Positions 612-33,800 of a stretch of DNA of 64,000 nucleotides are shown here, in pieces. Made by a program: the position numbers and the translations under genes. This DNA comes from a virus (lineage: Duplodnaviria > Caudoviricetes): positions 160,001 through 224,000 of the IMG/VR virus record IMGVR_UViG_3300023283_000076; one strand, given 5' to 3'. Below the pieces are notes generated by a model. That model made no database searches and was not told the origin of the DNA. It saw only the letters and a list, made by a program, of their open reading frames with translations. Position 1 is the first letter of the stretch; every line of letters starts with the position of its first letter.

Positions 612-3600
612 ATGAAAGAAAGTTTAAATATAAGTTTTAACACTAATGTTCTAGTAACAGAGCATGATCCAGATAATCTCAACGGCCCGGGAAATGTTCT
701 TTTAAACAAATCAAATGCGGTACATTCTCAGAATATGGCACGGGCCATTGCGCGAGCTTTAGCAAGAGAACCCAATTCATTTGTGCATCGAATAGCTTTT
801 GGTAATGGAGGAAGCTTTACTGACGCTGGAGAAACCACCATAATCAATCCCCCTAATGATGGGACTAGGGGGGATGGATGGGAGTCACGTTTATACAATG
901 AAACATATTCCGAAATTGTAGATGAGAGTAACGTCTTAGTTGGAACGGACCCGGGTTCATCTGGACCTAACTCGAATAGAATAGGCGGTGGGGCATCTCC
1001 TACTGATGATCCGGAGGGAACTGGTGTAGTATCATTAGAAGTTGGAAGAAAATCTAACATTATCGCCACAATGTTTATTAATCAAAACGAACCAATAAGC
1101 CAACTGGAACAATCAACGATAGATCAAGAAATTACTGCTGAACAAAAAGCGTTTGAGTTTGATGAATTAGGGTTTTATACAACAGGCCAACCCGCGTTGC
1201 CCACTCCTGCTACATCGTTAATAAATGTTGGAAATAAAACATCTGAAGATATTATTCCGTCTTCAATGCTAGGCAGTCAACTTATATTAAACTATGAAAT
1301 AAATGGAGAAGAGAAACAAACAGTTTTTATTGTTCCTAGTATAGGATCAGGCCCGGGGGGTGAAGTTACGTTCGGTGATCTAGCTGAGGGAATAAACACT
1401 GGAAGCTGGTTTTCAAGTAATCCCGGAGATGATAGTACCACATTAATTAAAGTAACCATAACAGATAGAACACCGGGGGCAGTATATCCCTCCATCGCGG
1501 GATCTGAAACTTTCGGATTTTTGGTGTTTGAAAATCTTGTTGCCGGGGAAGGTAACACGTTAAAGCTTAATTGTTCGGCAATTGGTTCTGATATGTTATT
1601 TGCCTTAACTGGAAATTGCACAAAAGTTGATACCTCTACTAATAATGGTATTGATAGTGGAGTTGCTAATGATGCTGCAAATCCAGTAAATGAACGAGAA
1701 AGACTATTAACTCATTTAACATTTTCGCCTATTTTAAAAAAAGAAAATAGAGTTATAAAAATTGTGTACACGTTAACAATTTCAGTATCCCAAACGGGGG
1801 ACTGTGTTCCTAATATTGAAAATGTACCACCACCGCCATCCCCTAGCCCAACACCGTCCGTATCTGAAAGTGCTACGCCTACACCGACGCCGAGCCCCAC
1901 CCAGAGTATGGGAATTACACCTACTCCTACACAGAGTATTGGAATTACGCCTACACCATCAATATCTGATAGTGCAACACCTACACCGACACCTACACCA
2001 AGTCCTAGTGTTGCAGAACCAATGGTATTAACTATGGATACCACCCTAAATCCCAGTGGTACTGATGTAACATTGCCGATGAAAGGACCGGGAGATGTTA
2101 CTGTTGACTGGGGTGACGGAACCATGGATAGTTTTAATAATTCTACCGTAGACAGCTTTTTACAGTTCGCTCCGCATACTTATTCAACTGATGGTGTGTA
2201 CACTATTATAATTAGTGGAACATTAAATAAATTTGGAGACCTCAATATATTTATGGGAGGAGTTGTAGCGGTTAGTTCTTTTGGTGAATTAGGTACTACA
2301 AGTTTAGGAGGGGCATTAAATAATGCGACAAATTTAAATACTTTACCTGATAATATTCCATCTACTGTTACTGATGTGTCAAACATGTTCTTCAATGCTT
2401 CCAGTTTCAATATTGATATAAACTCATGGGATGTCAGTAATGTTACTAATATGGAAAATATGTTCGAAAACGCAGAATCATTTAATCAACCTCTAAACAA
2501 TTGGAATGTTTCAAATGTTACTAGTATGCACGACATGTTTGATGACGCATCCGCTTTTAATCAAGATATAAGTACATGGGATACTTCTTCAGTTACAACT
2601 ATGGAAGGAATGTTCCAGTCTGCGCAATCGTTTAATCAGCCTTTAGACAGTTGGAATGTTGCGTCTGTTAATAATATGAGTACTATGTTTCAAAATGCAA
2701 ATTCTTTTAATCAGGATCTTCCAAATTGGGATGTATCAAATGTTACTGACATGACATGGATGTTTAATGGCGCGAATATGTTTAATGGCGATATAACAAC
2801 ATGGGATACCTCATCAGTTACTGATATGGGTACTATGTTCCAAAATACTCAAGCATTCAACCAAGACATTTCAGGGTGGGATGTTTCTAATGTAACTGAT
2901 ATGTCATATATGTTCTTCAATGCTACTGCATTCAATCAAAACTTAAGTAATTGGAATACTATAAGTGTAACCCTTATGAATGACATGTTTTCTGGTGCTA
3001 GTATTTTTAATGGAGATATTTCAGGATGGGATGTTTCTAATGTAACTGATATGTCATATATGTTCTTCAATGCTACTGCATTCAATCAAAACTTAAGTAA
3101 TTGGAATACTATAAGTGCAACCCTTATGAATGACATGTTTTCTGGTGCTAGTATTTTTAATGGAGATATTTCAACATGGGATGTTTCTAATGTAACTGAT
3201 ATGTCGTTTATGTTTTCGGGTGCGCTTGCATTTAATCAAAACTTAAATAATTGGAATACTATAAATGTTACTAACATGCGATGGATGTTTGAAAACACGC
3301 CTGTATTTAATGGCGATATAACAACATGGGATACCTCATCTGTTACTGATATGGGTACTATGTTTCAAAACGCTCAAGCATTCAACCAAGACATTTCAGG
3401 GTGGGATGTATCAAATGTTACGGACATGGCATTCATGTTCTTTGGTTCTTCTTTTAATCAAGATATAAGTACATGGGTACCTTCTTCCGTTACTACCATG
3501 CAATCTATGTTTGCAAGCTCTTCTTTTGATCAGAATATCAATTCATGGAATGTTTCAAGTGTTCAAAACATAAGATTCATGTTTGGCGACTCTTCATTTA

Positions 3601-6170
3601 ACCAACCATTAAATAACTGGGATGTATCAAATGTTACTAACATGAATGGTGTTTTTCAAGATAATTCAACATTTAACCAACCATTGAATAATTGGGTCAC
3701 TTCTAGTGTCACAGACATGTCATTTATGTTCCTAAACGCAACTACATTTGATCAAGATATTTCAGGGTGGAATGTACTTAATGTTACTACTATGGAAGAA
3801 ATGTTTAAAAATGCAGCATCATTTAACCAAGAATTGAACAATTGGAATGTTTCTGGTGTATCGGTCATGCAGTCTATGTTCCAAGGTGCGGTATTATTTA
3901 ATCGACCATTGGGTAATTGGGATGTCTCTAATGTAACTGATATGAGTTTTATGTTTGATGGCGCATCCGCTTTTAATCAAGATATAAATTCATGGGTAAC
4001 TTCTTCAGTTACAACAATGAGAACGATGTTTCAGAATGCTGATGCATTTAATCAAGATCTTTCAAATTGGAATGTATCGAATGTCACAGACATGGCGTTC
4101 ATGTTCTTTGGAGCAGATATCTTTGATGGTGACATAACAACATGGACTACTTCATTGGTTACTACAATGGAAAGCATGTTCCAAAATGCAACATCGTTTA
4201 ATCAGAATTTATCAGGGTGGGATGTTTCAAATGTCACCAACATGCAAGAAATGTTTGAAGATTGTACTAATTTCAATGGAGATGTTAGCACTTGGGACGT
4301 ATCATCTGTTACCACCATGGAAAGAATGTTCGAAAACACTGAATCGTTTAATCAAGATTTAAGTTCATGGACACCAATATCTGTTACTACTATGGAAAGA
4401 ATGTTTGATAATGCAAGTGCATTTAATGGTAATGTTACGACATGGGATACATCATCTGTCACTAATATGAGAACTATGTTTCAAGATACTTTATTATTTA
4501 ACCAAGATATTTCAGGGTGGGATGTATCGAATGTTACTGACATGTCATTCATGTTCTTTAATTCTTCTTTCAATCAAGATATAAGTACATGGATACCCTC
4601 TTCCGTTACTGCCATGCAATCTATGTTTGGAAACTCCTCTTTTGATCAAAATATTGATTCGTGGGATGTTTCAAGTGTGCAAAACATAAGATTTATGTTT
4701 GGAAATTCTTCATTTAATCAACCATTAAATTCATGGGACACATCTTCTGTTGTTGACATGGGTGCTGTTTTTGAGAATAATTCAACATTTAACCAACCAT
4801 TGAATAATTGGGTCACTTCTAGTGTCACAGACATGTCATTTATGTTTAATGGGGCAAGTGCCTTTGATGGTGATGTTACTACATGGGATACGTCATCTGT
4901 CACTAATATGAGAGTCATGTTTCAAAATGCTGGAGCGTTTAATCAGGATATCTCGAATTGGAATGTAGAAAATGTTACTGACATGGAATTTATGTTTTGG
5001 AGTGCTTCAGTATTTAATCAAGATTTGAGTGGATGGTGTGTTACTAATATAACTTCAGAGCCTAATGGTTTTAGTGATAATACACCGTTAACAGCCGCTA
5101 ATAAGCCAAATTGGGGTACATGCCCAACACCTACGCCTACGCCGACTCCATCAGTATCTGAAAGTGCTACACCTACACCTACGCCGTCAGTATCTGATAG
5201 TACTACACCCACGCCTACACCTACACCGACTCCGTCGGAGCCGACAGAGCCAGCATCTCTTACTGTGTTCAGTGGGGCGCGAGATAACACTGTACGCAAG
5301 ATCGATCCGTCAACCATGACTCAAGTGGGGTCCAGTTTTACGGGGCATAGCAGTTGGGTGTTTGCATTAGCCTTTGGCACTGACGGGAATTTGTACAGTG
5401 GGTCGATAGACGACACTGTTCGCAAGATTGACCCGTCAACCATGACCCAACTGGGTTCCAGTTTTACGGCACCGGATATTGTGAATGCATTAGCCTTTGG
5501 TACCGACGGATACTTATATAGCGGGTTGAGTGATCAGACTGTTCGCAAGATTGACCCGTCAACCATGACTCAAGTGGGGTCCAGCTTTACAGGGCATACG
5601 GCTCTAGTGAACGCATTAGCCTTTGGTACAGATGGATACTTATATAGTGCATCTAATGACTTGACAGTTCGCAAAATTGATCCTTCGACCATGACGCAAG
5701 TCGGATCAAGCTTTGCGGATCACACTGTTTCAGTAAATGCATTAGCTTTTGGTACGGATGGATACTTATATAGTGGAGGCTGGGACGACACCGTTCGCAA
5801 GATTGATCCTTCGACCATGACTCAAGTAGGATCAAGCTTTACAGGACATACGGATAATTTGATCGTATTAGCTTTTGGTACCGATGGGAACTTATACAGT
5901 GGTTCGCATGATAGCACTGTGCGTAAGATTGACCCGTCAACCATGACTCAAGTAGGATCAAATTTTGTAGCCCCAGATCGTGTGCTTTCATTGGCATTTG
6001 GTACTGATGAGAATTTATATGTTGGCACGCAAGACGACACCGTCCACAAGGTTACCCCATCAGATATGACTCAGGTGGGATCCACTTTTGTAGCACATAC
6101 TGCTCGCGTACAGGCGTTAGCTGTAGATAAGAACATCACTGAAATGATTTTAGAGGCTACGCCGCCATAA
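612..6170 (+). CDS. Mosaic virion/tail-fibre-like protein: phage N-terminal domain, PT linker, about 35 DUF285/BspA-type repeats, PT linker, 7-blade WD40-like propeller
   Basis: Repeats of FNQDISxWDVSNVTDMxxMF; [10 protein letters not shown] linkers; seven copies of LYSGxxDxTVRKIDPSTMTQVGSSFTGH..VxALAFGTDG; late promoter. Confidence 0.8.
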   Translation: MKESLNISFNTNVLVTEHDPDNLNGPGNVLLNKSNAVHSQNMARAIARALAREPNSFVHRIAFGNGGSFTDAGETTIINPPNDGTRGDGWESRLYNETYSEIVDESNVLVGTDPGSSGPNSNRIGGGASPTDDPEGTGVVSLEVGRKSNIIATMFINQNEPISQLEQSTIDQEITAEQKAFEFDELGFYTTGQPALPTPATSLINVGNKTSEDIIPSSMLGSQLILNYEINGEEKQTVFIVPSIGSGPGGEVTFGDLAEGINTGSWFSSNPGDDSTTLIKVTITDRTPGAVYPSIAGSETFGFLVFENLVAGEGNTLKLNCSAIGSDMLFALTGNCTKVDTSTNNGIDSGVANDAANPVNERERLLTHLTFSPILKKENRVIKIVYTLTISVSQTGDCVPNIENVPPPPSPSPTPSVSESATPTPTPSPTQSMGITPTPTQSIGITPTPSISDSATPTPTPTPSPSVAEPMVLTMDTTLNPSGTDVTLPMKGPGDVTVDWGDGTMDSFNNSTVDSFLQFAPHTYSTDGVYTIIISGTLNKFGDLNIFMGGVVAVSSFGELGTTSLGGALNNATNLNTLPDNIPSTVTDVSNMFFNASSFNIDINSWDVSNVTNMENMFENAESFNQPLNNWNVSNVTSMHDMFDDASAFNQDISTWDTSSVTTMEGMFQSAQSFNQPLDSWNVASVNNMSTMFQNANSFNQDLPNWDVSNVTDMTWMFNGANMFNGDITTWDTSSVTDMGTMFQNTQAFNQDISGWDVSNVTDMSYMFFNATAFNQNLSNWNTISVTLMNDMFSGASIFNGDISGWDVSNVTDMSYMFFNATAFNQNLSNWNTISATLMNDMFSGASIFNGDISTWDVSNVTDMSFMFSGALAFNQNLNNWNTINVTNMRWMFENTPVFNGDITTWDTSSVTDMGTMFQNAQAFNQDISGWDVSNVTDMAFMFFGSSFNQDISTWVPSSVTTMQSMFASSSFDQNINSWNVSSVQNIRFMFGDSSFNQPLNNWDVSNVTNMNGVFQDNSTFNQPLNNWVTSSVTDMSFMFLNATTFDQDISGWNVLNVTTMEEMFKNAASFNQELNNWNVSGVSVMQSMFQGAVLFNRPLGNWDVSNVTDMSFMFDGASAFNQDINSWVTSSVTTMRTMFQNADAFNQDLSNWNVSNVTDMAFMFFGADIFDGDITTWTTSLVTTMESMFQNATSFNQNLSGWDVSNVTNMQEMFEDCTNFNGDVSTWDVSSVTTMERMFENTESFNQDLSSWTPISVTTMERMFDNASAFNGNVTTWDTSSVTNMRTMFQDTLLFNQDISGWDVSNVTDMSFMFFNSSFNQDISTWIPSSVTAMQSMFGNSSFDQNIDSWDVSSVQNIRFMFGNSSFNQPLNSWDTSSVVDMGAVFENNSTFNQPLNNWVTSSVTDMSFMFNGASAFDGDVTTWDTSSVTNMRVMFQNAGAFNQDISNWNVENVTDMEFMFWSASVFNQDLSGWCVTNITSEPNGFSDNTPLTAANKPNWGTCPTPTPTPTPSVSESATPTPTPSVSDSTTPTPTPTPTPSEPTEPASLTVFSGARDNTVRKIDPSTMTQVGSSFTGHSSWVFALAFGTDGNLYSGSIDDTVRKIDPSTMTQLGSSFTAPDIVNALAFGTDGYLYSGLSDQTVRKIDPSTMTQVGSSFTGHTALVNALAFGTDGYLYSASNDLTVRKIDPSTMTQVGSSFADHTVSVNALAFGTDGYLYSGGWDDTVRKIDPSTMTQVGSSFTGHTDNLIVLAFGTDGNLYSGSHDSTVRKIDPSTMTQVGSNFVAPDRVLSLAFGTDENLYVGTQDDTVHKVTPSDMTQVGSTFVAHTARVQALAVDKNITEMILEATPP
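1827..2010 (+). repeat. Pro/Thr/Ser mucin-like coding repeat ([10 protein letters not shown])
   Basis: Visible in translation; boundaries approximate. Confidence 0.85.
2330..5075 (+). repeat. DUF285/BspA-like ~25-aa tandem repeat array
   Basis: Periodic W-D/N-V/T-S-x-V-T-x-M-x-x-M-F...F-N-Q motif; 150-bp period visible in the DNA at 2880/3030/3180; boundaries approximate. Confidence 0.9.
5260..6130 (+). repeat. WD40-like seven-bladed beta-propeller repeats
   Basis: Seven ~42-aa near-identical units; higher GC than flanks; boundaries approximate. Confidence 0.85.
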
Positions 6171-6203: not shown

Positions 6204-7832
6204 TTAAGTTGAATATGTGTTTTCTACTCTTTCACCTTTACTATAATGTGATATTCTATGATGTGTGATCGGTGATGCTAATAGACATCCAACTTTAAGT
6301 TTATCCTCTCGTATTGCAATTTGAGCTTCGGCCATCAAAGAGCTTTCTGCCATTCTTTTGTGTTTGTAGCAATATTTAATAAATTTAGCATTCCCATTTT
6401 TGCTAAAGAGTATAGGCCAATTACAATAAAAGTACTCTCCTATATTATATGCTAGACCTCGATAACAATTACTATAAAATATTTTAGTTCTTATTTCTGG
6501 AACCTCTTTATTTTTAAGAAATTTTTCTTTCCTATTGGGATCTAAATTATACCATGCCCAGTTAGTATGATTATTCCCAAAGAATTCTGAAAATGACAGT
6601 TTTAAATAATCTAATTCATTTTCTTCTAGTATAGAGATTGCTTTATCGAATAAATCCTCGTCATATTTTTTAAAACCAGCATCACATATTTTCCCCTTTT
6701 CTTGTTGTTTATTAATCAACATATCGTCTTCAAAAAAAACCATATAAGAATGTGTTGATTTGGCAAAATGCTCAGCAGCATATTGTCTTCCCCCGGTAAT
6801 TCCTATATTGTTGAATTTATATTCTGTTAAATCGTATTCTTTTGTTATTTTGTCATATTCATTTTGAAGTTCTTTTTTAGTTGAATTATTTAATAAGTAT
6901 TTCGGAGATTTCTTAAAATCTTCGGGGAAAGTTTCTTTAAATCTAGATAAACATTCTATCAACTGTTTGGGTGCATTAAAAGTCAAAAAATACAATGCCA
7001 ACTTATCGTCGCTTTCTTGTTTTCGATTTTTCACTTTTTCAAAATATGAATTAATTAGTCCATTGGGCTCTATCATTTGAATATTAAATAAATGTTTATT
7101 AGTATAACTTATGATAGTGAATACAGACTCCTCAGTTCCCATATAACCCTGTTTTAATGTTTCGTTGAGTGTTCGGTAATATACATCATTAACCTTGTTT
7201 ATAGCTTCTTTGGTGCCCCCGAAGAAGCCACCTCTACATACATATTTGGTGTCTGTTCCAGCAAACCGGTTCATTCCTTCTTTTTTAAATCCATGAACTT
7301 CATTTTGTCCATCATATGGGAATGCTAGATACAACATTTTGTTCTTTTTAACATCTTCTATAAGTTTTTTGTCAAATTGATTAACACTAAAATATGATTG
7401 TATATTGACGGTATTACTTATTCCAGCGTCTATCCAAAAGAAATATCTGGAATCGAAGAAATTATTTAATGAGCTATCATTAAGTTTAAATTGCTTGGAC
7501 ATTACTAGTGGATTATAATATTCCAATTTTGCTTGGGGACTTTGTTCTAGCCACCCTGCTTGTGAATACCATTCTTTATTATTTCTTATTTTATCTGTTA
7601 AACCTTTAAATGGAAAATCAATATTTCGTAACATTACTTTTGTATTTTCCGGGCTTCGGTGTTTCCATACAAAATCTGAAACTTCTTTATCGCAATAAAC
7701 CACTAAATTAATATCCTGATCCAACAATTTTTTAAACGCTTCGAGGTACTGATTCATAGACCGTTTAAAATTATCTTTTAGATTATCTCGGTTCAAATTA
7801 TATAATGCAGTAACAAAAGTTATATCATTCAT
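6204..7832 (-). CDS. Two-domain glycosyltransferase-like protein (HtrL/WlaTC-like N-terminus plus GT-A-like C-terminus)
   Basis: ITFVTALY, YNPLVMSK, FFWIDAG, VCRGGFFGG, GTEES motifs; C-terminal NIGITGGRQ...MVFFEDDM. Confidence 0.75.
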   Translation of the reverse strand: MNDITFVTALYNLNRDNLKDNFKRSMNQYLEAFKKLLDQDINLVVYCDKEVSDFVWKHRSPENTKVMLRNIDFPFKGLTDKIRNNKEWYSQAGWLEQSPQAKLEYYNPLVMSKQFKLNDSSLNNFFDSRYFFWIDAGISNTVNIQSYFSVNQFDKKLIEDVKKNKMLYLAFPYDGQNEVHGFKKEGMNRFAGTDTKYVCRGGFFGGTKEAINKVNDVYYRTLNETLKQGYMGTEESVFTIISYTNKHLFNIQMIEPNGLINSYFEKVKNRKQESDDKLALYFLTFNAPKQLIECLSRFKETFPEDFKKSPKYLLNNSTKKELQNEYDKITKEYDLTEYKFNNIGITGGRQYAAEHFAKSTHSYMVFFEDDMLINKQQEKGKICDAGFKKYDEDLFDKAISILEENELDYLKLSFSEFFGNNHTNWAWYNLDPNRKEKFLKNKEVPEIRTKIFYSNCYRGLAYNIGEYFYCNWPILFSKNGNAKFIKYCYKHKRMAESSLMAEAQIAIREDKLKVGCLLASPITHHRISHYSKGERVENTYST

Positions 7833-8626
7833 ATATCAAGTTCCTTGATGATTTTGTTGTACGGTAAATTGTAATAATTGTAATATATACCTATAACTTC
7901 ACCTTTTACAATGTTTTTAGGATTATTATATCCGGCTTTAGCTAATGAAATTCCCAGTTCGTAACTTTCTCCCCACGATACACAATCACTTTTTTGTAAT
8001 ATATAATTCAATCTTCTTAGTTCACTTGCAAACAACTCTATTTTATTATTTTCGTTTTTTAATATAAAAAAATGTTCACTGGGTAACCCTACGTTATAGG
8101 GGTCTGGAGGATTTTCTTTTTTTCCATACACTCGTTTTTTATGATTATATATTGAGTGTTCTCTATCCCATTCTTGACCTAGTGTATCTCCCATTCTTGC
8201 ACCAACCATATCGTATTCGCCTTTTATAAGTGTTTCATATATGAAATTTTCGTTTTCGTCTGTTAGTTCTAATGCACAATCGCAATCTATAAAAAAGACG
8301 ATATCATACTGTTCTATGTTGGGGATATTTTCAAAACATAGAAATTTTAAAGTACAATTGAATTTTTTAGGGCCATTGATTGCTCTTAAACGTTCTTCAT
8401 GTTCTGGGATATCAGTGAAAATCTTTAAATCTTTTGTGATATTATTACGCGATTTTACTCTATTAGATCGTATAATATCTTCTGGTTTGTTAGTCGATAC
8501 TAGTATATCGTGATTTGTTGTTGATAATAGAGAGGTTATTAATTGATTGCAATATTTTATATACCGTTTGTCATTTGTTTGATCGATACATAATAAAGTG
8601 AATAATATTTTATACCTTTTAGTCAT
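7829..8626 (-). CDS. Putative GT-A glycosyltransferase
   Basis: YDIVFFIDCD (DxD), upstream K-F motif, position in the GT cluster, ATGA overlap with the next gene. Confidence 0.5.
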   Translation of the reverse strand: MTKRYKILFTLLCIDQTNDKRYIKYCNQLITSLLSTTNHDILVSTNKPEDIIRSNRVKSRNNITKDLKIFTDIPEHEERLRAINGPKKFNCTLKFLCFENIPNIEQYDIVFFIDCDCALELTDENENFIYETLIKGEYDMVGARMGDTLGQEWDREHSIYNHKKRVYGKKENPPDPYNVGLPSEHFFILKNENNKIELFASELRRLNYILQKSDCVSWGESYELGISLAKAGYNNPKNIVKGEVIGIYYNYYNLPYNKIIKELDI

Positions 8627-8641
8627 ATTTTATCTAATGAT

Positions 8642-9448
8642 TTATGTTTGTATTATAAAATACCGGTCGTCTTCCATGAATTTTGTATCATTTAATGGAC
8701 AGGTATTTAGTATAGTTTCAATAACATTATTTATTAAGTTTTTATCAGGTTTCCAGTATGAATTTTGTTTTTCCGCTTGTTCTAATTTGCCGTAAAACAT
8801 GGGAGACTCTGGTGAATCATGTTTCCAAACACTATAATAATCGGCAAATTTTATACCATCTCCTACTAAACTGTCATCATAATGCAATGGTATTGCAGGT
8901 ATTTCATATGCATGGGCTACAATGAGGCCGTGAAGTGTAGTAGAAATAATTTTTTTACATGATACAACCTCATCAATATATTTTTCAAATTTTAACCCAT
9001 GTGAGGTGCTTGGGTCAATAATTTTATATTCTAGATTTTTTTCTTTTATTTCGTTAGCAATTTTTGTGAAATGAATTTGGTGTGGTATTATGCCAATATC
9101 ATATTGTTTGGCGGTAGAATTTGGAACATAAAAATGTGGTAGGGCAATTGCTGGGTCCCCCCATGGTAAGTCTGAATAATTTGTATTTTGTTCAGTATAT
9201 TTTCCTCGTACTAAATCATATATTGCTCGGGGTTCGAGTTTTGTATTTTTTTCTATAATACCGCTTCCCCAAACCCTAGTATTTGGTTTAGCGCCAATTC
9301 CTGCAATTGACCCAGTAGAAATTATTTTAAACTCTTCATGATGATGGGCCCATACATAAGGTATTTTCCATTTATTTAACATGTACGGAAATACACAATC
9401 TCCAAAATTTGAAGCATTTACAAAATTAGCTTTAAGTATTCTTTTCAC
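8642..9448 (-). CDS. Polysaccharide pyruvyltransferase (ExoV-like)
   Basis: NFGD, STGSI, VWGSG, VRG, GDPA, IGIIPH, IISTTLHGLIVAHAYEIPA, GDGIKFADYY. Confidence 0.88.
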   Translation of the reverse strand: MKRILKANFVNASNFGDCVFPYMLNKWKIPYVWAHHHEEFKIISTGSIAGIGAKPNTRVWGSGIIEKNTKLEPRAIYDLVRGKYTEQNTNYSDLPWGDPAIALPHFYVPNSTAKQYDIGIIPHQIHFTKIANEIKEKNLEYKIIDPSTSHGLKFEKYIDEVVSCKKIISTTLHGLIVAHAYEIPAIPLHYDDSLVGDGIKFADYYSVWKHDSPESPMFYGKLEQAEKQNSYWKPDKNLINNVIETILNTCPLNDTKFMEDDRYFIIQT

Positions 9449-9474
9449 TTTTTATATATTAGCCTATAGACGTA

Positions 9475-11127
9475 TTATTTATGTTTATATTCATATACTT
9501 TATTTCCACAATCCCATATTCGCAAAAATCTATTGGCTAACATATTCTCATACTCTGAAAGACTAGGATCAAATTCCTCCAAGAGACCCTCAAGCTTATG
9601 TTTTTGATACTTATTTCGAGATTCTAGAATGCGTTCTTTGGGTTTAAAGTATTTATAATTTGGTGCGGATTGGCCAATTAATCTAAATCCATTCTTTTCA
9701 TATATACTACCATCAAAAAATGCAATATCACAGTAAGATATCACACTATTAAAAGAATTGTTTTCTTTAAAGTGCGTCATTAATTTAGGAAATGCTCCGT
9801 TAACTATGGTTCCTTTTCTGTTGGCAAATCGACATAACTCGAAATCGTGATTTTTAGAAAATCTCGGCTTAGAAAATGTCATTACTGATACTAATTCGTT
9901 ATTGTGTAGCAACCCGTACCGTATTTTTCCTTGGAATGTATTACCTTGTAAATGATTTAAATCTAAAAAATTTTTACTTTCGGTAGGAGTAAGTTCTACT
10001 ACTTTACATTTCCTTGCTGCCACAGTTTCTCTGGCTTTTCCAAGCCTAATGGATATCAAACTTTTAATTATATCATGTTTAAATTCCCAATCATATTCTG
10101 ATATATGAATTAGAGAATAGCCTTTTTCATTAACTGCTTTAGTTTTTTTAAGATGATAGTTCTTATGTTTATACAAATCACAGTGCCAGAATAGTCCATT
10201 ACACTCTATAGCAAGCTTTTTACTAGGAATCACTATATCTAATTCCATCGGAGCTATTAACCTTCTATCCGATTTAATTGTGTTAAGCCCAAGTTCATCG
10301 ACAAAATCAGCAATTTCAATTTCAAAATCGCTCGATTTCGACAACAAAGTTTTTAATTTTTGAATATTAGATAATAGTCGGGTTTCAATGTAACCGTCTT
10401 TGGTTTTTATGGTTATGGGTTTGTGGACCCCTTCATACTCTTCTTCTTTGCTTAATAGTTCTCCTCCCTTGGACTCTACCAATTCTTTTACCACGGAATA
10501 TGACAGACGCTGATTTTCACGTCTTTTTTGTAAACAATATTCTTTTGAATATAACTTTTGTTGCTTGCGTATATATGAAATCTTTTTTTTCTCTCTTACG
10601 CCGTCAATCGTCTCTACTAAAAGAGGAGCATCCCATCCATTATATTCTGTTGACAGTAATTTACCGCCACGCATTTCAACTTCTTTTTTTATTTCGTTTA
10701 AGGTGGGTTTACTACCTCTAAGAGAAAGGGATTCACTTTGTGGCGATAGTTTTCCTAGTTTTCTTATACTATTTCTTATACTAGTCCACGTTCTTTCATT
10801 AATTTCACCGTTTGGAAATTGTATTTTGATTGGAGTGATATCGTTTACGTATGTTTTACTAACAAGTTTAACGTTATAATCTTGTAATTTTTTCTTTATT
10901 TTTTTCAGAGATTTTTCTCTCTTTGAATCTGAAAGACTTTTTATCTGTTCTGGTTTGGGTTTTAATGTTTTTGTTTTTCGTATATTCACCAGTTTTCTGG
11001 TTTCAATATTATCTCCTATTTTTATCAACAAGTCTTGATGGACTCCATTATATTCAGTTGACAAAAGTTCCCCACCTTTCGATTTTATTATTTCATCTAC
11101 TTCACCAATTGTCAACTTTTGGGGCAT
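9475..11127 (-). mobile_element. Free-standing Hef-like homing endonuclease (4 N-terminal repeats, PD-(D/E)xK/DUF559-like domain, C-terminal domain)
   Basis: Repeats of KGGELLSTEY; ELDIVIPSKKLAIECNGLFWH; LVSVMTF...ELCRFA...LRIWDCG. Confidence 0.8.
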
Positions 11128-11133
11128 AATTAA

Positions 11134-12537
11134 TCATCCGTCTACGTTTTTAGTAACCTTATCTAACCATCCATTAGATTTACTATGAGGCCACACAGTA
11201 TACGTGCTTGGGGCTATGCTTGACAAGAAGATAAACCTATAATCAATAAATCCATTGTCACCAGTTACATATTTTTTAAATTCTGGTCCTGATAAATCTT
11301 TTCTATGTATTTCATTACCATCTGCATCATGTGCACCAACAAAGCAAAAGTCTATGTCATCCAATACTTTACTATTATTAAATATCGAAGGAAATTCGTT
11401 CTTGTGTGTGCATATTCTTACATCATTAGAACGGGCAAATGAGTCTTTCCATTCTTGTTCATTATTATATGGATAATTAACTGGGGGTTCTTCTTGATCT
11501 AATGTAGGTTGCTGTACGCCTCTATGTTCAAAACTAATACCAGCATACTCCTCATATTGTCGTAATGTTCTTTCATTACCAAAGCCATATTTCCCAAAAT
11601 CAATTTGATTGGGGTCTTCGCCGTCCATTCCAAACAAAATTCTATTTCTTTTATGACACATATTATTTCTTTCTACCCAATCCTTTTCTACGTTGCCTTT
11701 CTTTTTATTTATAGTTGTGTGGTCATCCCATACTTTGGTTCTACCTTTTCTGGTATATTCGTGCCATATCAATAACTTATGTGGTGTAAACAAATCATAT
11801 CCATGCGTATATGCCCTAGTAGCTATTGAGATTTCTTCTCCATGAAAAAAATAATATGGATCATGTTGCACATCTTCTGCAAACGATCCATCAGCGAAGC
11901 AAAAATGGCCAGAGTAAAATCTAGCACGTTGAGGTTTATCACGCTCTTTCCAATTTTTCATTTCAGATGGTATAAAGAACACTGCACCTTCTGGTATAAA
12001 CCTATCAAAGTTTGTTTGCCATGGTATTTGTACTCTTCCATTAGGATCATTTTCAGGGTTATATGATGGAATGTACCCTGTTAAAATAGGTTTCGGTGTT
12101 TTTGTAGTTCTAACACTTTCTAACAGTTCTATTAATTCTTTATCCCAATTTTCTATAAATCTATGATGGGAATCTAGTTGTAGAGTATATTTTTCTTTGT
12201 TATATTGTTGTTGAATTAAATTTCTAGCCCAGCATGTCCCTTTAGTTTCTGTATAATGTAAATCTATAAGATTAACATATGCATTATCCTTCATCAATTC
12301 TATAATATTAAATTCTTTATCTTTTCCATCAATGTCGGTACATTCATATACTCGATATCCTTGTATATCATAGCCTTGATCTAAAAAATCGTCTATGGAT
12401 TGCTCATCACCATGTTGCCAATTTACTACTACATGTAAATTTTCCGGGTGTGCGCTGTTAGATATCAAACTTTTTAGCGTGGGTATAAGTTCTGGATCTC
12501 TGTAACTTGCTATTTGAACAAATATAGTGTTTTTCAT
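11134..12537 (-). CDS. GT60-like (Pfam GlcNAc / Gnt1-like) polypeptide or hydroxyproline alpha-GlcNAc transferase
   Basis: TIFVQIASYRDPEL, KGTCWAR, YTLQLDSHHRF..WD, FFHGEE, AYTHGYDLFTP, WHEYTR. Confidence 0.85.
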   Translation of the reverse strand: MKNTIFVQIASYRDPELIPTLKSLISNSAHPENLHVVVNWQHGDEQSIDDFLDQGYDIQGYRVYECTDIDGKDKEFNIIELMKDNAYVNLIDLHYTETKGTCWARNLIQQQYNKEKYTLQLDSHHRFIENWDKELIELLESVRTTKTPKPILTGYIPSYNPENDPNGRVQIPWQTNFDRFIPEGAVFFIPSEMKNWKERDKPQRARFYSGHFCFADGSFAEDVQHDPYYFFHGEEISIATRAYTHGYDLFTPHKLLIWHEYTRKGRTKVWDDHTTINKKKGNVEKDWVERNNMCHKRNRILFGMDGEDPNQIDFGKYGFGNERTLRQYEEYAGISFEHRGVQQPTLDQEEPPVNYPYNNEQEWKDSFARSNDVRICTHKNEFPSIFNNSKVLDDIDFCFVGAHDADGNEIHRKDLSGPEFKKYVTGDNGFIDYRFIFLSSIAPSTYTVWPHSKSNGWLDKVTKNVDG

Positions 12538-12564
12538 AATATTCGGGTTTCCATAATTTCGATT

Positions 12565-12572
12565 TATTTATA
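12565..12572 (-). promoter_or_regulatory. Late promoter TATAAATA driving the glycosyltransferase cluster
   Basis: tatttata on + strand, 28 nt upstream of the 12537 start. Confidence 0.75.
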
Positions 12573-12576
12573 TTAA

Positions 12577-12603
12577 AAAAGGGAGGTTGAATTCCTCCCT
12601 TTT
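12577..12603 (-). terminator. Intrinsic terminator
   Basis: aaaagggagg-ttgaatt-cctccctttt hairpin after the 12631 stop codon. Confidence 0.8.
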
Positions 12604-12630: not shown

Positions 12631-13095
12631 TTATTTATTATTTTTTGGTGGTCTACCCGGACCGCGTTTAGCGGTAGGTTTAGGTGCGCTTTCGGTCTTG
12701 GGTTTCGGGGGTTGTTGTGTGGATTGCTGCGGGGCACGAGCGCGTTTTTGCGGGGTCATTGGGTTCGCAGTCTGACGTAATCCTCTTCTAGTGGATGACG
12801 GAGATATGATCTGCCCAGATTTGGTCCGAACTTGAACCAATTGATGAAAATATTCTAAAGCATTCATACCATTTTTCAACGTTACCTGATCCATTATATC
12901 CCATAACGGAGCATTGTTGGCTCCTCTTTTTTTTAGGATATCACCCATTCTTTTAATATCTACATGATCTAAACTTTCTTCTTTTATGAAATATACATCT
13001 CCATTGGTATCTTCTTTAATAATAATAACATTATATCCAATCCCGTTTCCGTATATATCCATTGCTCTATAATGATTGTAAACTTGTTGTTCCAT
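12631..13095 (-). CDS. Hypothetical phage protein with basic, Pro-rich C-terminus
   Basis: Strong AAGGAG RBS; C-terminal KRGPGRPPK. Confidence 0.7.
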   Translation of the reverse strand: MEQQVYNHYRAMDIYGNGIGYNVIIIKEDTNGDVYFIKEESLDHVDIKRMGDILKKRGANNAPLWDIMDQVTLKNGMNALEYFHQLVQVRTKSGQIISPSSTRRGLRQTANPMTPQKRARAPQQSTQQPPKPKTESAPKPTAKRGPGRPPKNNK

Positions 13096-18180: not shown

Positions 18181-20340
18181 TCACTCTTTAAAAGTTATGA
18201 AAATATCTTTTTCTGACAGTTCTGCTGCTTTTATAGTAATAAATTTACCGTTTCTTTCTACTACAAGAGAATGATCTTCTGTTACAGTTACTTCTTTTCC
18301 ATTATCTAATGTTATTTTATATAATGGTTTTTTAACTTTATGTCTATATACAGTAAGTACTTGTTTAGTTATCTTTTTCTTTTGTTCTGGGTTATAACAT
18401 GGCGAAAAGTATTCATCATTATTGAATTTAATAATTTGTTTGTTGTTCTTATCAGTAAACACTCCATGCTTGTCGGAAAGATAATCAAACCAATTTTCTA
18501 TTGTTTCATTTTTACCATTTATAGTTATTATAGAATCTTTTGTAACACTATCAGTATCACCATAAATTATTGATTCTGATGGAAATTTATATTCTCCATC
18601 TAATGATTTTGCAATTTGTTTAGCCATATGCAATAAAATTTCTCTACCCGTCTTGGTTGTAGATTCTGCTATTCTCACGTCAAAAAACCTAAAGTATTTG
18701 TTGCCAAAAACACCATACATGGAGTTTAACTGAATCTTTTTTAAATATTGAATATTATCATAGTATTCCTTCTGTTTTTCATATGCAGGATCTTTGGTTT
18801 CCCCATATTTTTTTGTCATTTCAGCTTTCAATTTTTGATATTTTATTCTATCCTCAAACCAACTAGTCAATATGGATGGAATGATACCTTCTTGTGATTG
18901 GTCAAATATTGTTCCATGTGCTGATATACTCCATTTATTATTATGGAGATATTCGTTCCATTCTGCAGCAGTCATAGTATCATCACGACCATTCTCGTAC
19001 AGTACAGTAAGCTCTACATCGTTTTTTTCCATTATGTACTCATACGCCTTATCATTTTCGAAAAATTGGCCTATGAGCGTCTCAGGCGATATGTTAATCG
19101 CTCTCATTGATGAAGGATATAGAGATTTAATATCCACTGAAGAAATCCATTCATGTAATCCAATTTGTGGTTCCAATACGAATGCTCCCTCGAATTTTTT
19201 TCCATGTTCATCTACAGAATATGGAGCATCTGGAAGTACGACTCTTTCTGGCAATTCATGCTTGCAAAAATTTAAAATAGCGGTATCTGATGTACTAACC
19301 GTAGTTAATACAGATGGGATTCTATTTGTGACCATATGCGAAAAATTGATAGCCAGATTCATATATTTAAATTTTAAATCTAACCCTTTTAGAATTTCAG
19401 TATCTCTAATATTATATTTTATAAATTGATCAAAGTCTTCTCGATATAAACGATATAAACTTTTTTCATAGTCCAATTTTTCCATACCCTCAAGTTCTTC
19501 CTCTGCTACTGCTTCTAGAGAATATGAGGACCGTTGGTTTGCGTCAAACTTCTTGACCATTTGCATAAAATCTATCCAAACCCTTCCGATTGGTTTAACA
19601 TTTATTTCTGTGGACCCATATTGTTCGACTTCTATAACACCTACATCCTGATCTATCTCAGGAAAATTCATAGCCCTTGTAGCATTTTTTCCAAATATTT
19701 TCATCAATCGGAAATAAATATATGGAGTATCAAAAAAATCGCTGTTCCAACCGCTGATAATATCAGTGTCTTCGATTTCTTCTATAAACTTAGTTAATAA
19801 TTCCTTTTCATTTTTAAAAATGTATATCTCTGCTTCATGTTCTAAATGTTCTAACTGTTCTACACTACAATTTTTCCAAGCACCCTCTTTTGGTGGTACT
19901 GCAAAAACTATAGATTTGTTTGTATGCTTATGATATAAAGCTATGGAATTTACCGGTGCGTATGGATTTGAACTACCTGCATGACCCTTTTTTGGATCAT
20001 AATCAACCTCGATATCATAAAACGTTATATTTAATTCGTCTATTGGGGCTTTATAGTAGTTGTCAGATAATATTTTTAATTCTGGAGATATATCCGATTC
20101 ATATAAGTTAACCCCACGTTCTCTAAGTCTTTTTCGTTCTTTAAAAAATTCAAACGGATCGTCAAATTCAATGTTTGTTAATTTTGCACCTTTAACAGAT
20201 TTGTACTTCTCTGTTGATTCATAATCTTCTATAAAAAAATTATACGGGGCATCGTATGTTACTAGTACCCTGCCCTGCGGGGTTCTTTCCCATACATATA
20301 CATTTTTTTTATCATTCGATGTCGCCGTAGAAATATACAT
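18181..20340 (-). CDS. DNA polymerase B N-terminal fragment (3'-5' exonuclease plus motifs A/B) ending in the N-half of a split intein
   Basis: FYDIEV, GWNSDFFD, YNIRD, DIKSLYPS, KIQLNSMYG, YGDTD|SVTKDS. Confidence 0.95.
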   Translation of the reverse strand: MYISTATSNDKKNVYVWERTPQGRVLVTYDAPYNFFIEDYESTEKYKSVKGAKLTNIEFDDPFEFFKERKRLRERGVNLYESDISPELKILSDNYYKAPIDELNITFYDIEVDYDPKKGHAGSSNPYAPVNSIALYHKHTNKSIVFAVPPKEGAWKNCSVEQLEHLEHEAEIYIFKNEKELLTKFIEEIEDTDIISGWNSDFFDTPYIYFRLMKIFGKNATRAMNFPEIDQDVGVIEVEQYGSTEINVKPIGRVWIDFMQMVKKFDANQRSSYSLEAVAEEELEGMEKLDYEKSLYRLYREDFDQFIKYNIRDTEILKGLDLKFKYMNLAINFSHMVTNRIPSVLTTVSTSDTAILNFCKHELPERVVLPDAPYSVDEHGKKFEGAFVLEPQIGLHEWISSVDIKSLYPSSMRAINISPETLIGQFFENDKAYEYIMEKNDVELTVLYENGRDDTMTAAEWNEYLHNNKWSISAHGTIFDQSQEGIIPSILTSWFEDRIKYQKLKAEMTKKYGETKDPAYEKQKEYYDNIQYLKKIQLNSMYGVFGNKYFRFFDVRIAESTTKTGREILLHMAKQIAKSLDGEYKFPSESIIYGDTDSVTKDSIITINGKNETIENWFDYLSDKHGVFTDKNNKQIIKFNNDEYFSPCYNPEQKKKITKQVLTVYRHKVKKPLYKITLDNGKEVTVTEDHSLVVERNGKFITIKAAELSEKDIFITFKE
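18184..18549 (-). mobile_element. Split intein, IntN half (122 aa, Ser1)
   Basis: Begins SVTKDSII right after YGDTD; block B VTEDHSL; no endonuclease domain. Confidence 0.88.
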
Positions 20341-20405: not shown

Positions 20406-21026
20406 TTAAATATCCCAATTCTCAGGGTTTAATTCAAAATTTTCAGGGTGAAATTCATATGGTTTTGTTGATCTTATTTGTAACCTTACTTGAGTTAATG
20501 ATCCAATATTTACAGGAGCGACACCATTTGCAAAATTGGGGGCAGTTGGAAATATGATTAGTGTTCCTCGTTGTGGTTTAAAATTTATATCAAACGTGGG
20601 AAATTCTAATTTTCCCCCATTTACTTCAAAAAGGGGATCAAAGTCTGGTCTGTCATTATGATCATTTAACCATAAAATTCCGGTAAAGTCTATTAGATTA
20701 TATCGTACCCAACCGCGTTCCCGTGTTTGCATATATCCGTCAGTTTTAACTTTTGTAGGTTGATAACCGGGTGGGTACCATTCAAACATTAAATTATGTG
20801 TCCCCAAATAAGAAGTATTGAATTTATTTTCAAGTTTATATATAACATCGTCAAACGTTTGTAGAATGCGTGTGCTATTTAAACGACTCGATAATATAGT
20901 AACTTTAGGGTTTCCATCTTGACCTTTCATGGGAACAGCTTTGTCTATTCTTAAATCTTCTAATATTCTTTCACATAAAAGTGGTGATACAAATTCTTCA
21001 ATAATTAAAAATGGTATTTCTTTCAT
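20406..21026 (-). CDS. Prolyl-4-hydroxylase-like 2OG-Fe(II) oxygenase fold, apparently lacking metal ligands
   Basis: EEFVSPLLCERI, FTGILWLND, GGKLEFP, PQRGTLIIFP; expected HxD reads KTD. Confidence 0.7.
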   Translation of the reverse strand: MKEIPFLIIEEFVSPLLCERILEDLRIDKAVPMKGQDGNPKVTILSSRLNSTRILQTFDDVIYKLENKFNTSYLGTHNLMFEWYPPGYQPTKVKTDGYMQTRERGWVRYNLIDFTGILWLNDHNDRPDFDPLFEVNGGKLEFPTFDINFKPQRGTLIIFPTAPNFANGVAPVNIGSLTQVRLQIRSTKPYEFHPENFELNPENWDI

Positions 21027-27276: not shown

Positions 27277-27751
27277 TTAAACGAAAATCATATTCAAGGA
27301 TATAAAGTCAAACGTTAAATTAGGATTTATATTTTAACGATATGTTAGTTTCTGTTATGACGTTTTCTAAAGGTAATATATCTAGAAAATCGAAGGGTTG
27401 GGAAATAGACAGGTTTGCCTCATTAATGAACACTTCAGTAATTGGAGGTGCTAGTAAACTATGGGAATACTTTCTAAATCATTATATGCCAGATATAGTT
27501 GTGTCATACGCAGACAACAGATGGTCTAATGGTAATTTATATAAAACTTTAAACTTTCAGTTTGAAAAAACACTACGCCCAACTATTGGTATTTTAACCC
27601 AAATGAACTTATACGAATACATCGTTTTACATTAAGAAAAAATAGTTCTGATTATGATCAGTTAACGGAATATCATAATCGATTATTAAATGGATATTTA
27701 AGAATATGAGATTGCGGAAGTTCTAAATGGGTATGGAAAAGGTCCTGCTAA
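27277..27751 (+). pseudogene. Degraded Hef-like homing endonuclease C-terminal remnant
   Basis: LNENHIQG/NVKLG/LYFNDMLVSVMTF..WEIDRFA..SYAD.RWS.G..Y/PNYWYF..YLRI*DCG; about three frameshifts plus a TGA at 27707; N-terminus missing. Confidence 0.88.
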
Positions 27752-30873: not shown

Positions 30874-33800
30874 TCAGATCAACCCTGTATTATAGTTTTC
30901 GGACACTTCTGTGCTGGTAAGCGCCCTATCGTAAAAGACGATCTTGTCAAGAATCCCATCAAGCTCAAAGCCTGAATCCCCGGAGAAAATCGAGCCGATG
31001 TGAAAAATTGTCCCGTGTACGTCGCCACTCTCAACAGGCCCTGAATTTACAGCGACTCCATCGACATAAATCGTGCCCGTAGAGCCACTCCGAGTCACTA
31101 CAACATTATGCGGCTCTCCGTCGGTGATTCCGGTGTCACCTCCGGAGTCAAAGTTGGACGGATCGCCGCCCGTCCTTGTAAATACCCGGATATGGCCGGG
31201 GGTGAGGTTTCCTGTCGCATCGCCATTTATGCTGATGAAAATTCTTGCATTGAAGTTATCCGAGTCCCACATAAGCATTTCATTCGCTTCATTGGTCGTT
31301 TGAATCCAGAATTCACAAGTGAAATCACCATTGCCATCCCAGATCGGAACCTCTATATGTGCTTGGTTGCCCGGCACTCGCATCGCGGCTGTGCTGCCCG
31401 ATGCAAGCGGCGTAGCCCCGAGCGTGGGTGTACCACGGAACGTGCCATCGTTTCCGTTACCGGATGAGTCAGCAGCGGCCACTCCGCTGGTCTCATCGAC
31501 TTTCCAGTAGCCAAGCGGGTTGCGAGAAAGAATAACCTCGTCATGCGTGACCGTTTTTAATGGTGGACCGCTCTTGTATGGGTGGTCTGCGGGCAGGTTG
31601 GATTCAATCCCGAATTTGTGGGCGAGGTATCCTTCTAGTTTTTGTCTGTCATCAGTCGAAAGTGCGGAGGCTGTCATCACAAGCGCCCTGAATTTGCCGC
31701 TCATATTGACGCTCGAAGACCCGTCAGCGGCAACGGCGTTCATTGTATCGACGGTGTTGACCGTTGTAGTTCCGCTAGTGTTTTCGGATACACCATCCCG
31801 CCAAATAGTATGGTCACCCATTGTAGTACCGTCTAATATAGCGCCATAGATGCCACCCCCCGAATCGTTCAAGGATGTAGTTGTGCCGCCTCCTTGAATT
31901 TCCAACCTGATCCCCCCATTATCTTGCCGAAATGTCCAGCGAGTGCCTTCATCAGACAACTCACTGTAGTTCATGCTAAAAAGTCCACGATCTGAGCTTG
32001 AACCGGGGTCTACAACCATCATAAGCGTTCTGTTATCGCTACCTGAAATTCCGAGCGTGGGTAGGTCTCCGCGTTGCGTGCCCCCGGCAAATACCAAATG
32101 CTGGCTCTTGGAATCTGTGGCTATTGCTGGATTCGTGTTAAAGGTCATGTGACGGCCATTACCGCTTATATCATCAAGCTGCTGGGCATCTCCATTGACG
32201 TCTGTTGTGATCGTGTCGTTTTCGCTTGCATCAAGCCATAGCGACGTAGTGATGTCTGCAGGGGTCCATAGGTCCTCGTATACAAACGCTGCCGCGAGCG
32301 TGTCGGATTCACTTCCCTGAGTCACCGCCACGTCAACTGTTCCGGTTCCAGCCGGGGTCGTGCAAGTGATTTCTGTTTTACTGACAACCGTGATGTTGGT
32401 TGCAGATACACCGCCGAAGGTAACTGTCGCGCTGTTACCGGTGTCGAAATTCTCGCCGGTGATCGTGACGCTGGTTCCGCCTGCTTCATCGCCTGTAGTC
32501 GGGTTGATGCTACTTATAGACAACATTCTGGCTTCTGATTGGGCCTGTATTTGAGCTGCAGAAAGCACCTTCCGGTAAAACGCTACCAACTGCACGCTTG
32601 CGTCACTTTCTTTGGTTATAGATGAATCCCTTACCGCACCGATTGCAATTTCCCCTCGTGAGGATAATCGTCCAAGACCTCCGGATAACGTCCCGGTTGC
32701 AACAGAAACACCATCTACAAATACCTCGACAGCGTCTGTTGAGTCTGTGAAAGTTACGTGGACAAGGTGTGTGGTTGCATCTGCCGTTAGGCCGGTAGAA
32801 GAACTGTACTGCTCCCACGATCCGTTAAAAACTTTCACTAAGATCGAACCATCTGATTCAAGTGATACTTCAGTTCCCTGATTGTTGGAGACCGTTCTAA
32901 TTCCCCAATGATTTGACAGATTCCCTCCAGTGTCTCTTCGCGCAAGAAATGCGAACGTTGCATCATCGCCTTTTTTGGGCTGGTCTGCATTTGTCGCAGA
33001 TGTGGTTGAATATGTATCAGCCAACCCTGCATTGTTGTTCGTTAAGTCAACTGAATCTATTGCAAAGCCGTCTAGCGCCCCGGCAGTCCCTACGTTCGAT
33101 CCTCGATCAAGTGTGCTGACACCAGATACAGACTCGGTTACTGTCGAGCCAGCTTGATCAAAGTTCCAAAGCTGGATCGGAGAATCTGCTAGCATTACGT
33201 CAACCAAGCTATCAGAAGACTGCATACTGGTTTGTGTTGGTGATGGTGTAGGTGTTGGAGTAACACTCTCAGATATCGATGGTGTGGGTGTTGGTGTAGC
33301 ACTCTCAGATACTGATGGTGTAGGTGTTGGTGTAGGTGTAGTACTATCAGATACCGATGGTGTAGGTGTTGGAGTGGGGGTGGGGGTAACACTCTCAGAT
33401 ATCGATGGCGGGCTGTTCTTGTAGGGGTGGTCTGCTGGCAATTGGCTTTCTAGTCCATGCCGATGGTGCAGATATCCTTCAACTTTTTCACGCTCTGCGG
33501 GAGCATTTTTCAAGATCAAAACCTCGCCCATAGCGCCGTTCAGGTAATCACCAGTCGATAATCCAGTCAGCCTGCCAAGTCTTACCTGCCCTCCTGTTGT
33601 CATTTCAGCAACTGCGCCGGATGTGGTGACGTTGCTGATTTCCGTTGCGGCGTCGTAGATCCTGACAGACGTCCCGACGATTTTCCTAAGCTGCGATACG
33701 AAAAGAGGTTTTCCGGAATTGGGGAAGCTGTTAAATACCGAGCTGTCGGCACGGGTTGAATTGTTAAACGCTTGTAAAAGCTGTCTGGTGTCTCGAATAT

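Follow-up and report, generated by a model that had tools for sequence, protein, structure and literature searches.

A candidate late-expressed O-glycosylation cassette for Pro/Thr/Ser-rich virion proteins in an XacN1-like jumbo phage

We analyzed a 64,000-nucleotide stretch of a jumbo phage genome (the window; bases 160001-224000 of the 270,653-bp IMG/VR virus record IMGVR_UViG_3300023283_000076) that carries a minus-strand gene cluster led by a GT60-like glycosyltransferase. With a probability that we put at about 0.62, the cluster would constitute a late-expressed, cytoplasmic protein O-glycosylation cassette decorating the Pro/Thr/Ser-rich linkers and tails of large virion appendage proteins. 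An earlier note, made from the letters of the window, had proposed a GT60-led system acting on such linkers, and four lines of evidence favor it: promoter motifs shared between the cluster and the tail genes, the conservation of two of the enzymes, the linkage of bacterial GT60 genes to Thr-Pro repeats, and the Schiff-positive virion proteins of the cultured relative XacN1.

The record has a completeness estimate of 79% and a G+C content of 34%, and genes for a tail sheath, baseplate wedge proteins and giant virion proteins were identified in the window (Pfam, PHROG). Among cultured phages, its closest relatives are jumbo phages of Xanthomonas and Stenotrophomonas, namely XacN1, Xoo-sp13, CM1 and RAS14; a megablast search of the cluster against isolated phages gave no match. 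Gene order was compared with that of XacN1 and six metagenomic jumbo phages, and the bacterial set comprised 80 loci recovered in a profile scan with the leading gene (35-62% identity, full length).

The enzyme cluster and its expression signals

Five co-directional minus-strand open reading frames (ORFs) fill positions 6204-12537, with intervals of 6, 26 and 15 nt between the first four and a 4-nt overlap of the last two; the coordinates bear out the co-directional enzyme cluster of the earlier note. In the order of transcription, the cluster and its flanking signals are:

12577-12603, minus strand: intrinsic-terminator hairpin followed by a T run (RNA fold -14.3 kcal/mol, z -3.68)
12565-12572, minus strand: TATAAATA, a T4-type late-promoter-like motif, 27 nt ahead of the gene A ATG
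11134-12537, minus strand: gene A, 467 aa, GT60-like glycosyltransferase (PF11397, phrog_24687), predicted initiating polypeptide transferase
9475-11127, minus strand: gene B, 550 aa, Hef-like homing endonuclease between A and C (phrog_559, E = 1e-104)
8642-9448, minus strand: gene C, 268 aa, polysaccharide pyruvyl transferase family (PF04230)
7829-8626, minus strand: gene D, 265 aa, putative accessory GT8/GT6-like GT-A glycosyltransferase (D114-C-D116 motif, ESM Atlas)
6204-7832, minus strand: gene E, 542 aa, tandem GT-A protein with an HtrL_YibB N-domain and an inverting-type GT-A C-domain (Pfam, AlphaFold2 (AF2) model)

Gene A, present in a single copy in the genome, matched the Pfam profile GlcNAc (PF11397) from position 1 to 351 of its 352 positions (E = 6e-77; 259.9 bits against a cut-off of 21) and phrog_24687 with E = 1e-166, confirming its assignment as a GT60-like enzyme of the CAZy classification. 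The residues D122-S123-H124, which provide the acidic metal-binding motif expected of a GT-A enzyme and which may correspond to the DxH motif of mucin-type transferases, were invariant among 26 homologs, as were H259-E260. The protein is 59.6% identical to XacN1 ORF334 and has more than 7,500 homologs in metagenomes. A complex prediction of A with the Pro/Thr-rich tail (residues 3320-3396) of the giant virion protein described below returned a score of 0.00, which counts neither for nor against binding.

The second conserved enzyme, gene E, had been described as an HtrL-like protein fused to a GT-A domain, and both halves were recovered. Residues 3-251 matched HtrL_YibB (PF09612, E = 2.5e-14), and the AF2 model (predicted local distance difference test score, pLDDT, 91) consists of two GT-A domains with conserved acidic motifs, the invariant residues being D135 and E368-D369-D370. 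The N-domain (1-267) matched retaining GT6 enzymes in structure (Z 13), and the C-domain (273-542) matched the inverting enzymes B4GALNT1, GnT-I, POMGnT1 and TarP (Z 13-15). The best Foldseek matches of the whole protein were to tandem GT-A enzymes, among them LARGE1, K4CP, PmHS2 and LH3. Gene E shares the two-GT-A architecture of LARGE1, PmHS2 and K4CP, and with LARGE1 and PmHS2 also the pairing of one retaining-type with one inverting-type domain; however, the resemblance to the three is in fold only (8-13% identity), and a polymerase role for E is only predicted. Gene E is 47% identical to its XacN1 ortholog and has more than 5,300 homologs in metagenomes, some of them with fused methyltransferases.

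Genes C and D are conserved less widely than A and E. Gene C matched PS_pyruv_trans (PF04230) with 27 bits, just over the cut-off of 25.3, and all 42 sampled relatives matched the same family (best E = 6e-18), which upholds its identification as a pyruvyltransferase. Gene D had been called a DxD GT-A enzyme; its D114-C-D116 motif and its resemblance to GT8/Nucleotid_trans clusters in the ESM Atlas (features 0.96-0.97, TM 0.60-0.68) would fit a GT8/GT6-like enzyme, but no Pfam or PHROG match was found for it. No useful match to a solved structure came from sequence and profile searches with A, C, D and E, and for gene C no solved relative was found. The view of the four enzymes as one pathway was borne out in part: A and E are conserved, whereas C occurs in only some related loci and a D homolog was seen in none of the eight related loci compared.

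The cluster was also not made up of glycan enzymes only, since its fifth ORF, gene B, which the earlier note had overlooked, encodes a Hef-like homing endonuclease and accounts for about a quarter of the cluster. Its tblastn matches included Hef genes of Campylobacter and AR9, and the genome holds three full copies, gene B included, and one decayed copy; the others are:

27321-27739 of the window, plus strand: decayed Hef-like copy, interrupted by TAG and TGA stops
G000:234701-235528 and G000:239969-240661, outside the window (coordinates of the record): two further full-length Hef-like copies

Gene B is missing at the same site in the two closest relatives (L010 and L011), where A is followed directly by C. 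We regard it as a selfish insertion into the operon, with no role in the glycan chemistry.

The exact late-promoter motif reported ahead of the cluster is present, albeit at a spacing of 27 nt and not 28. The genome contains 57 copies of TATAAATA, and in 25 of the 57 cases an ORF begins 20-42 nt downstream of the motif on the same strand, compared to a chance expectation of about 0.7 such placements from 57 motifs (estimated via the ORF count). Such a short spacing ahead of predicted late genes, tail genes among them, is as expected of a T4-type late promoter. The 25 genes include, besides the cluster, the genes of the 1852-aa and 3396-aa proteins described below, a baseplate wedge gene and another Pro/Thr-rich protein, and the distribution fits a putative co-expression of the cluster with the tail genes. 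The terminator said to insulate the cluster from upstream transcription was likewise found; the hairpin at 12577-12603 is predicted to terminate the transcript of the upstream 154-aa gene just ahead of the cluster promoter. That gene (12631-13095, minus strand) is kept in all related loci, and its product has a basic, Pro-rich C-terminal tail with an AT-hook-like GRP motif. None of the proteins A, C, D and E has a hydrophobic segment.

Candidate acceptors and conservation of the enzyme pair

Three large virion proteins with Pro/Thr/Ser repeats had been pointed out in the window, and we located the Pro/Thr/Ser-rich (PT) tracts in each of them:

612-6170, plus strand: 1852-aa tail appendage protein, candidate acceptor; PT tracts at residues 395-485 and 1491-1561; TATAAATA 25 nt upstream
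30874-35748, minus strand: 1624-aa virion protein (TIG, Laminin_G_3), candidate acceptor; PT tract at residues 767-852
35752-45942, minus strand: 3396-aa virion protein, candidate acceptor; PT tracts at residues 3014-3115 and 3176-3394 (C-terminal tail); TATAAATA 24 nt upstream

The 1852-aa protein is ordered as a tail-protein-like N-domain (1-400), a PT linker, DUF285 repeats, a second PT linker and a WD40 propeller (Pfam, PHROG). The model of its N-domain (pLDDT 84) resembles phage tail proteins, namely the HFTV1 tail (Z 9.2) and sheath domains of E217 and XM1 (Z 8.5), and we therefore consider the protein to be a tail appendage in which PT linkers connect DUF285 and WD40 modules. The same N-domain corresponds to a convergent protein of about 400 aa in the related phages. 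Four additional proteins of the genome also contain PT tracts, and TPTPTP-coding tracts were found in XacN1 and two other related phages, one of them near the C-terminus of the giant XacN1 ORF325.

XacN1 and the six metagenomic phages share a common gene order: DNA polymerase B, 5'-3' exonuclease, NUDIX, a small protein, A, variable genes and E. Gene E is followed by the convergent ~400-aa gene in six of the seven phages, and then by thymidylate synthase where the flank extends that far. The loci L010 and L011 depart from this order in the convergent gene only, its slot in L010 being taken by a PT-rich propeller protein. The variable slot between A and E holds a pyruvyltransferase, a carbamoyltransferase with partners, or a Sulfotransfer_4 protein, all of which are predicted glycan-tailoring or decorating enzymes. 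Judged by sequence, A and E form a pair that is conserved both among XacN1-like jumbo phages and across many bacteria.

XacN1 provides the closest cultured comparison. The genes of its ORF330-ORF334 region corresponding to A and E are orthologous to those of the window and the flanking genes are the same, whereas a carbamoyltransferase and two unrelated genes stand where the Hef gene, C and D are found here. At least two glycoproteins were stained by the Schiff method in XacN1 virions, and the authors proposed ORF328 and ORF334 as their makers (PMC5852040); these were the only two genes that they named, and no acceptors were given.

The same enzymes recur in bacteria. Gene E adjoins gene A in 27-28 of the 80 bacterial loci, across several phyla. 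Of 75 loci, 26 have a PT-rich ORF no more than 10 kb away from the GT60 gene, and in 13 the distance is 1 kb at most. With roughly one tract per genome as background, this share, a third of the 21-kb loci, is a very large excess. In the genomes of a Ralstonia (6.0 Mb), a Paraburkholderia (7.9 Mb) and a Saprospiraceae member (12.8 Mb), all of the (TP)4-coding matches listed are located no farther than about 5 kb from the GT60 gene, and a fourth bacterial genome had one of its three (TP)4-coding places near that gene. This strong genomic linkage to (TP)n tracts, which are rare elsewhere in these bacterial genomes, may point to a polypeptide acceptor of the GT60-like enzyme.

About 19 Burkholderiales loci were alike, the GT60 gene being the last of a tssF-tssG-tssA-fimbrial-like operon and facing a VgrG-Rhs pair. 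The Burkholderiales type VI secretion system (T6SS) loci are L019-L021, L024-L028, L030, L031, L034, L040-L042, L047-L050, L059 and L071. Fast-evolving tails with Pro/Thr/Ser/Glu-rich repeats were present in all 16 VgrG proteins (16/16) of the GT60-containing T6SS clusters, and some of the tail repeats closely resemble the Pro/Thr repeat unit of the phage. These features suggest that T6SS spikes may be glycosylated in Burkholderiales.

Two further observations concern PT-rich proteins. In five bacterial loci (L039, L052, L056, L061 and L072) the PT-rich protein beside the GT60 gene starts with a twin-arginine-like motif (RRKALK, RRRFVR), and one such protein has a weak match to a type IX secretion system (T9SS) sorting domain; Tat export of a folded, already glycosylated protein would fit a cytoplasmic transferase. 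In the phage record, about 3.3-4 kb before the window (G000:156050-156682, plus strand), a 210-aa sialyltransferase-like protein is encoded (phrog_4603, E = 7.6e-23; weak Pfam matches to MptE-like/DUF115). Its gene has its own TATAAATA, and the next gene directly downstream, likewise with TATAAATA, encodes a 946-aa PT-rich beta-propeller protein; the 210-aa protein could thus represent a second glycosylation function next to a PT protein. Genes of nonulosonic-acid synthesis (NeuB, cytidine monophosphate (CMP)-transferase) were not found in the record.

Proposed pathway and alternative explanations

The earlier note had the GT60 enzyme prime the tracts, the other transferases extend the glycan and the pyruvyltransferase cap it. 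We retain the core of this scheme. The analysis shows the identities of the genes, their layout as an operon, the promoter and terminator, the conservation of A and E and the genomic linkage of GT60 genes to PT tracts; which acceptor and donor sugars are used, in what order the steps run and how the virion is affected, we infer as follows. Gene A would move the first sugar, probably N-acetylhexosamine from a uridine diphosphate (UDP)-sugar, onto Thr or Ser of the PT repeats. The retaining-type and inverting-type GT-A domains of E would then add two more sugars, one alpha- and one beta-linked, or build a short alternating chain. Gene D would contribute an extra sugar or branch specific to this phage, and C would place a pyruvate ketal on a sugar, thereby introducing negative charge; B would take no part. 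The donor sugar, the linkage to Thr/Ser over hydroxyproline, the order of extension and the terminal position of the pyruvate are predictions.

Several points weigh against this proposal. The cassette adjoins replication and nucleotide-metabolism genes in all relatives. XacN1 also has a GT9 gene, and its Schiff-stained bands were not matched to named proteins. The five genomes of the (TP)4 survey had been chosen for having PT ORFs near the GT60 gene, and a within-locus Fisher test of PT adjacency (odds ratio 3.4, p 0.002) gave p 0.07-0.16 after dereplication. Finally, sequence and profile searches yielded no solved GT60 structure with which to check the catalytic residues of gene A.

The strongest alternative, which we nevertheless consider unlikely, is that the cassette makes or remodels a non-protein glycan, such as the lipopolysaccharide (LPS) or capsule of the host in superinfection exclusion, or that it glycosylates protein targets other than the PT tracts (such as folded virion domains or host proteins). 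HtrL/YibB is a family associated with the LPS core gene cluster of E. coli, a connection by family name only, and polysaccharides are classically decorated by pyruvyl-, carbamoyl- and sulfo-transferases; moreover, Iyer and Aravind interpret the glycosyltransferase clusters of jumbo phages as modifiers of surface polysaccharides (PMC7824862). However, export of a polysaccharide is disfavored because A, C, D and E are soluble, lacking any membrane segment, and because the conserved neighbors, in phage and bacterial loci alike, include no lipid-phosphate transferase for initiation, no flippase and no ABC exporter. The late-type promoter common to the cassette and the tail genes and the specific linkage of GT60 genes to PT tracts also speak against this alternative.

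An extension of the proposed PT glycosylation is about as improbable when its parts are taken jointly: GT60 and E would form a widespread, hitherto undescribed cytoplasmic 'proteoglycan' system of contractile injection machines. Gene A would prime Thr/Ser in the PT tails of both phage tail appendages and T6SS VgrG spikes, E would act as a LARGE1- or heparosan-synthase-like co-polymerase of an alternating alpha/beta chain, and interchangeable pyruvyl, carbamoyl, sulfo or methyl transferases would cap the chain, thereby determining how long and how charged it becomes.

We give far less credence to hypermodification of phage DNA, in which the enzymes would glycosylate hydroxymethylated bases as in T4, base J or YerA41. 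Genes for DNA polymerase, 5'-3' exonuclease, NUDIX, a deoxyribosyltransferase-like protein and a thymidylate synthase homolog surround the cassette in all relatives, and the oligosaccharide-like thymidine modification of YerA41 is a precedent for a bulky, sugar-like DNA modification (PMC9023294). Against this, the thymidylate synthase homolog scores as a canonical ThyA, retains the Asn of PFNIASY and groups with T5-type enzymes, which belong to phages with normal thymine. A pyrimidine hydroxymethylase or TET/JBP enzyme, as expected for base glycosylation, was not found, although the control for the Tet_JBP search was silent. The DNA of XacN1 can be digested with BssHII, NaeI and SpeI (PMC5852040), and the bacterial homologs occur in T6SS or PT-protein contexts and not beside restriction-modification genes. 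Activity on DNA, which the earlier note had listed as counting against its proposal, is therefore improbable. We also looked at the ThyA homolog as a candidate hydroxymethylase, on account of the Ala that replaces the Trp of its YGxQW motif, and rejected it; the replacement is no evidence for hydroxymethylation, as T5-type enzymes likewise lack that Trp and have Gly. The same gene (G000:159547-160590, minus strand, overlapping positions 1-590 of the window) encodes a 66-aa Cys-containing N-terminal extension, which is also present in the L011 homolog.

Linkage of the glycan to hydroxyproline of the same PT tracts after prolyl hydroxylation, as by Gnt1 on Skp1, is just as doubtful: Gnt1, the best-studied GT60 enzyme, modifies hydroxyproline, and a conserved 206-aa protein encoded 8 kb upstream (20406-21026, minus strand) resembles the P4H-type 2-oxoglutarate-Fe(II) (2OG-Fe(II)) dioxygenases of PF13640 and is preceded by TATAAATA, but this protein has no invariant histidine in eight homologs, and thus lacks a conserved iron-binding triad; it gives no Pfam match, and none of the bacterial GT60 loci encodes a homolog. 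The 206-aa protein was accordingly rejected as an active prolyl hydroxylase. Its gene is located just upstream of that of the family B DNA polymerase (18181-20340, minus strand). The polymerase ORF encodes 719 aa, of which residues 635-716 match an intein-splicing domain, and it ends inside the match. The polymerases of related phages are either ~725 aa long with an intein-splicing match or ~850-875 aa long without one; the enzyme may be split or intein-interrupted.

Relation to known systems and significance

The PT glycosylation cassette proposed here shares features with several known systems. As for the protist GT60 enzymes (Dictyostelium Gnt1 and pp-alphaGlcNAcT2; Trypanosoma cruzi OGNT), gene A matches PF11397 over its full length, is soluble and is predicted to act on Thr/Ser/Pro-rich, mucin-like tracts. 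Unlike them, it is phage-encoded with bacterial homologs, has an extra conserved C-terminal region of ~130 aa and is paired with a tandem GT-A protein. The GtfA/GtfB system of Gram-positive serine-rich repeat adhesins likewise primes a low-complexity Ser/Thr tract with O-linked N-acetylglucosamine in the cytoplasm and then extends it, as is predicted here, but its enzymes have the GT-B fold (GT4) and no sequence relation to those of the phage, and it uses accessory Sec export. An exporter was not among the conserved neighbors of the bacterial or phage GT60 loci.

That viruses can encode the glycosylation of their own virions is established in giant viruses, such as PBCV-1 and Mimivirus (the fibril glycans of the latter are pyruvylated), and in some mycobacteriophages; Freeman and colleagues reportedly described mycobacteriophage virion glycosylation in 2023. 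In these viruses, as proposed here, virus-encoded cytoplasmic glycosyltransferases act on virion proteins, and the glycans of Mimivirus also bear pyruvate. The enzyme families and acceptor sequences differ, the predicted targets here being the PT-repeat stalks of tail appendages in a jumbo myovirus of the Gram-negative type. To our knowledge, virion glycosylation is not established for jumbo myoviruses of Gram-negative-type hosts; our literature searches on GT60 or PF11397 in phages found nothing relevant besides the XacN1 paper, and those on VgrG glycosylation found nothing relevant.

Cultured models are at hand in XacN1, Paraburkholderia and Ralstonia. If the proposal is true, a tunable, charged glycan covers the flexible tail-appendage stalks of thousands of jumbo phages in the environment, and this coat would influence how stiff the stalks are and how well they resist proteases, as well as adsorption and immune recognition. 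Bacterial proteins, including the tails of T6SS spikes, would then also be substrates of the enzyme pair, highlighting a potential new class of bacterial cytoplasmic O-glycosylation.

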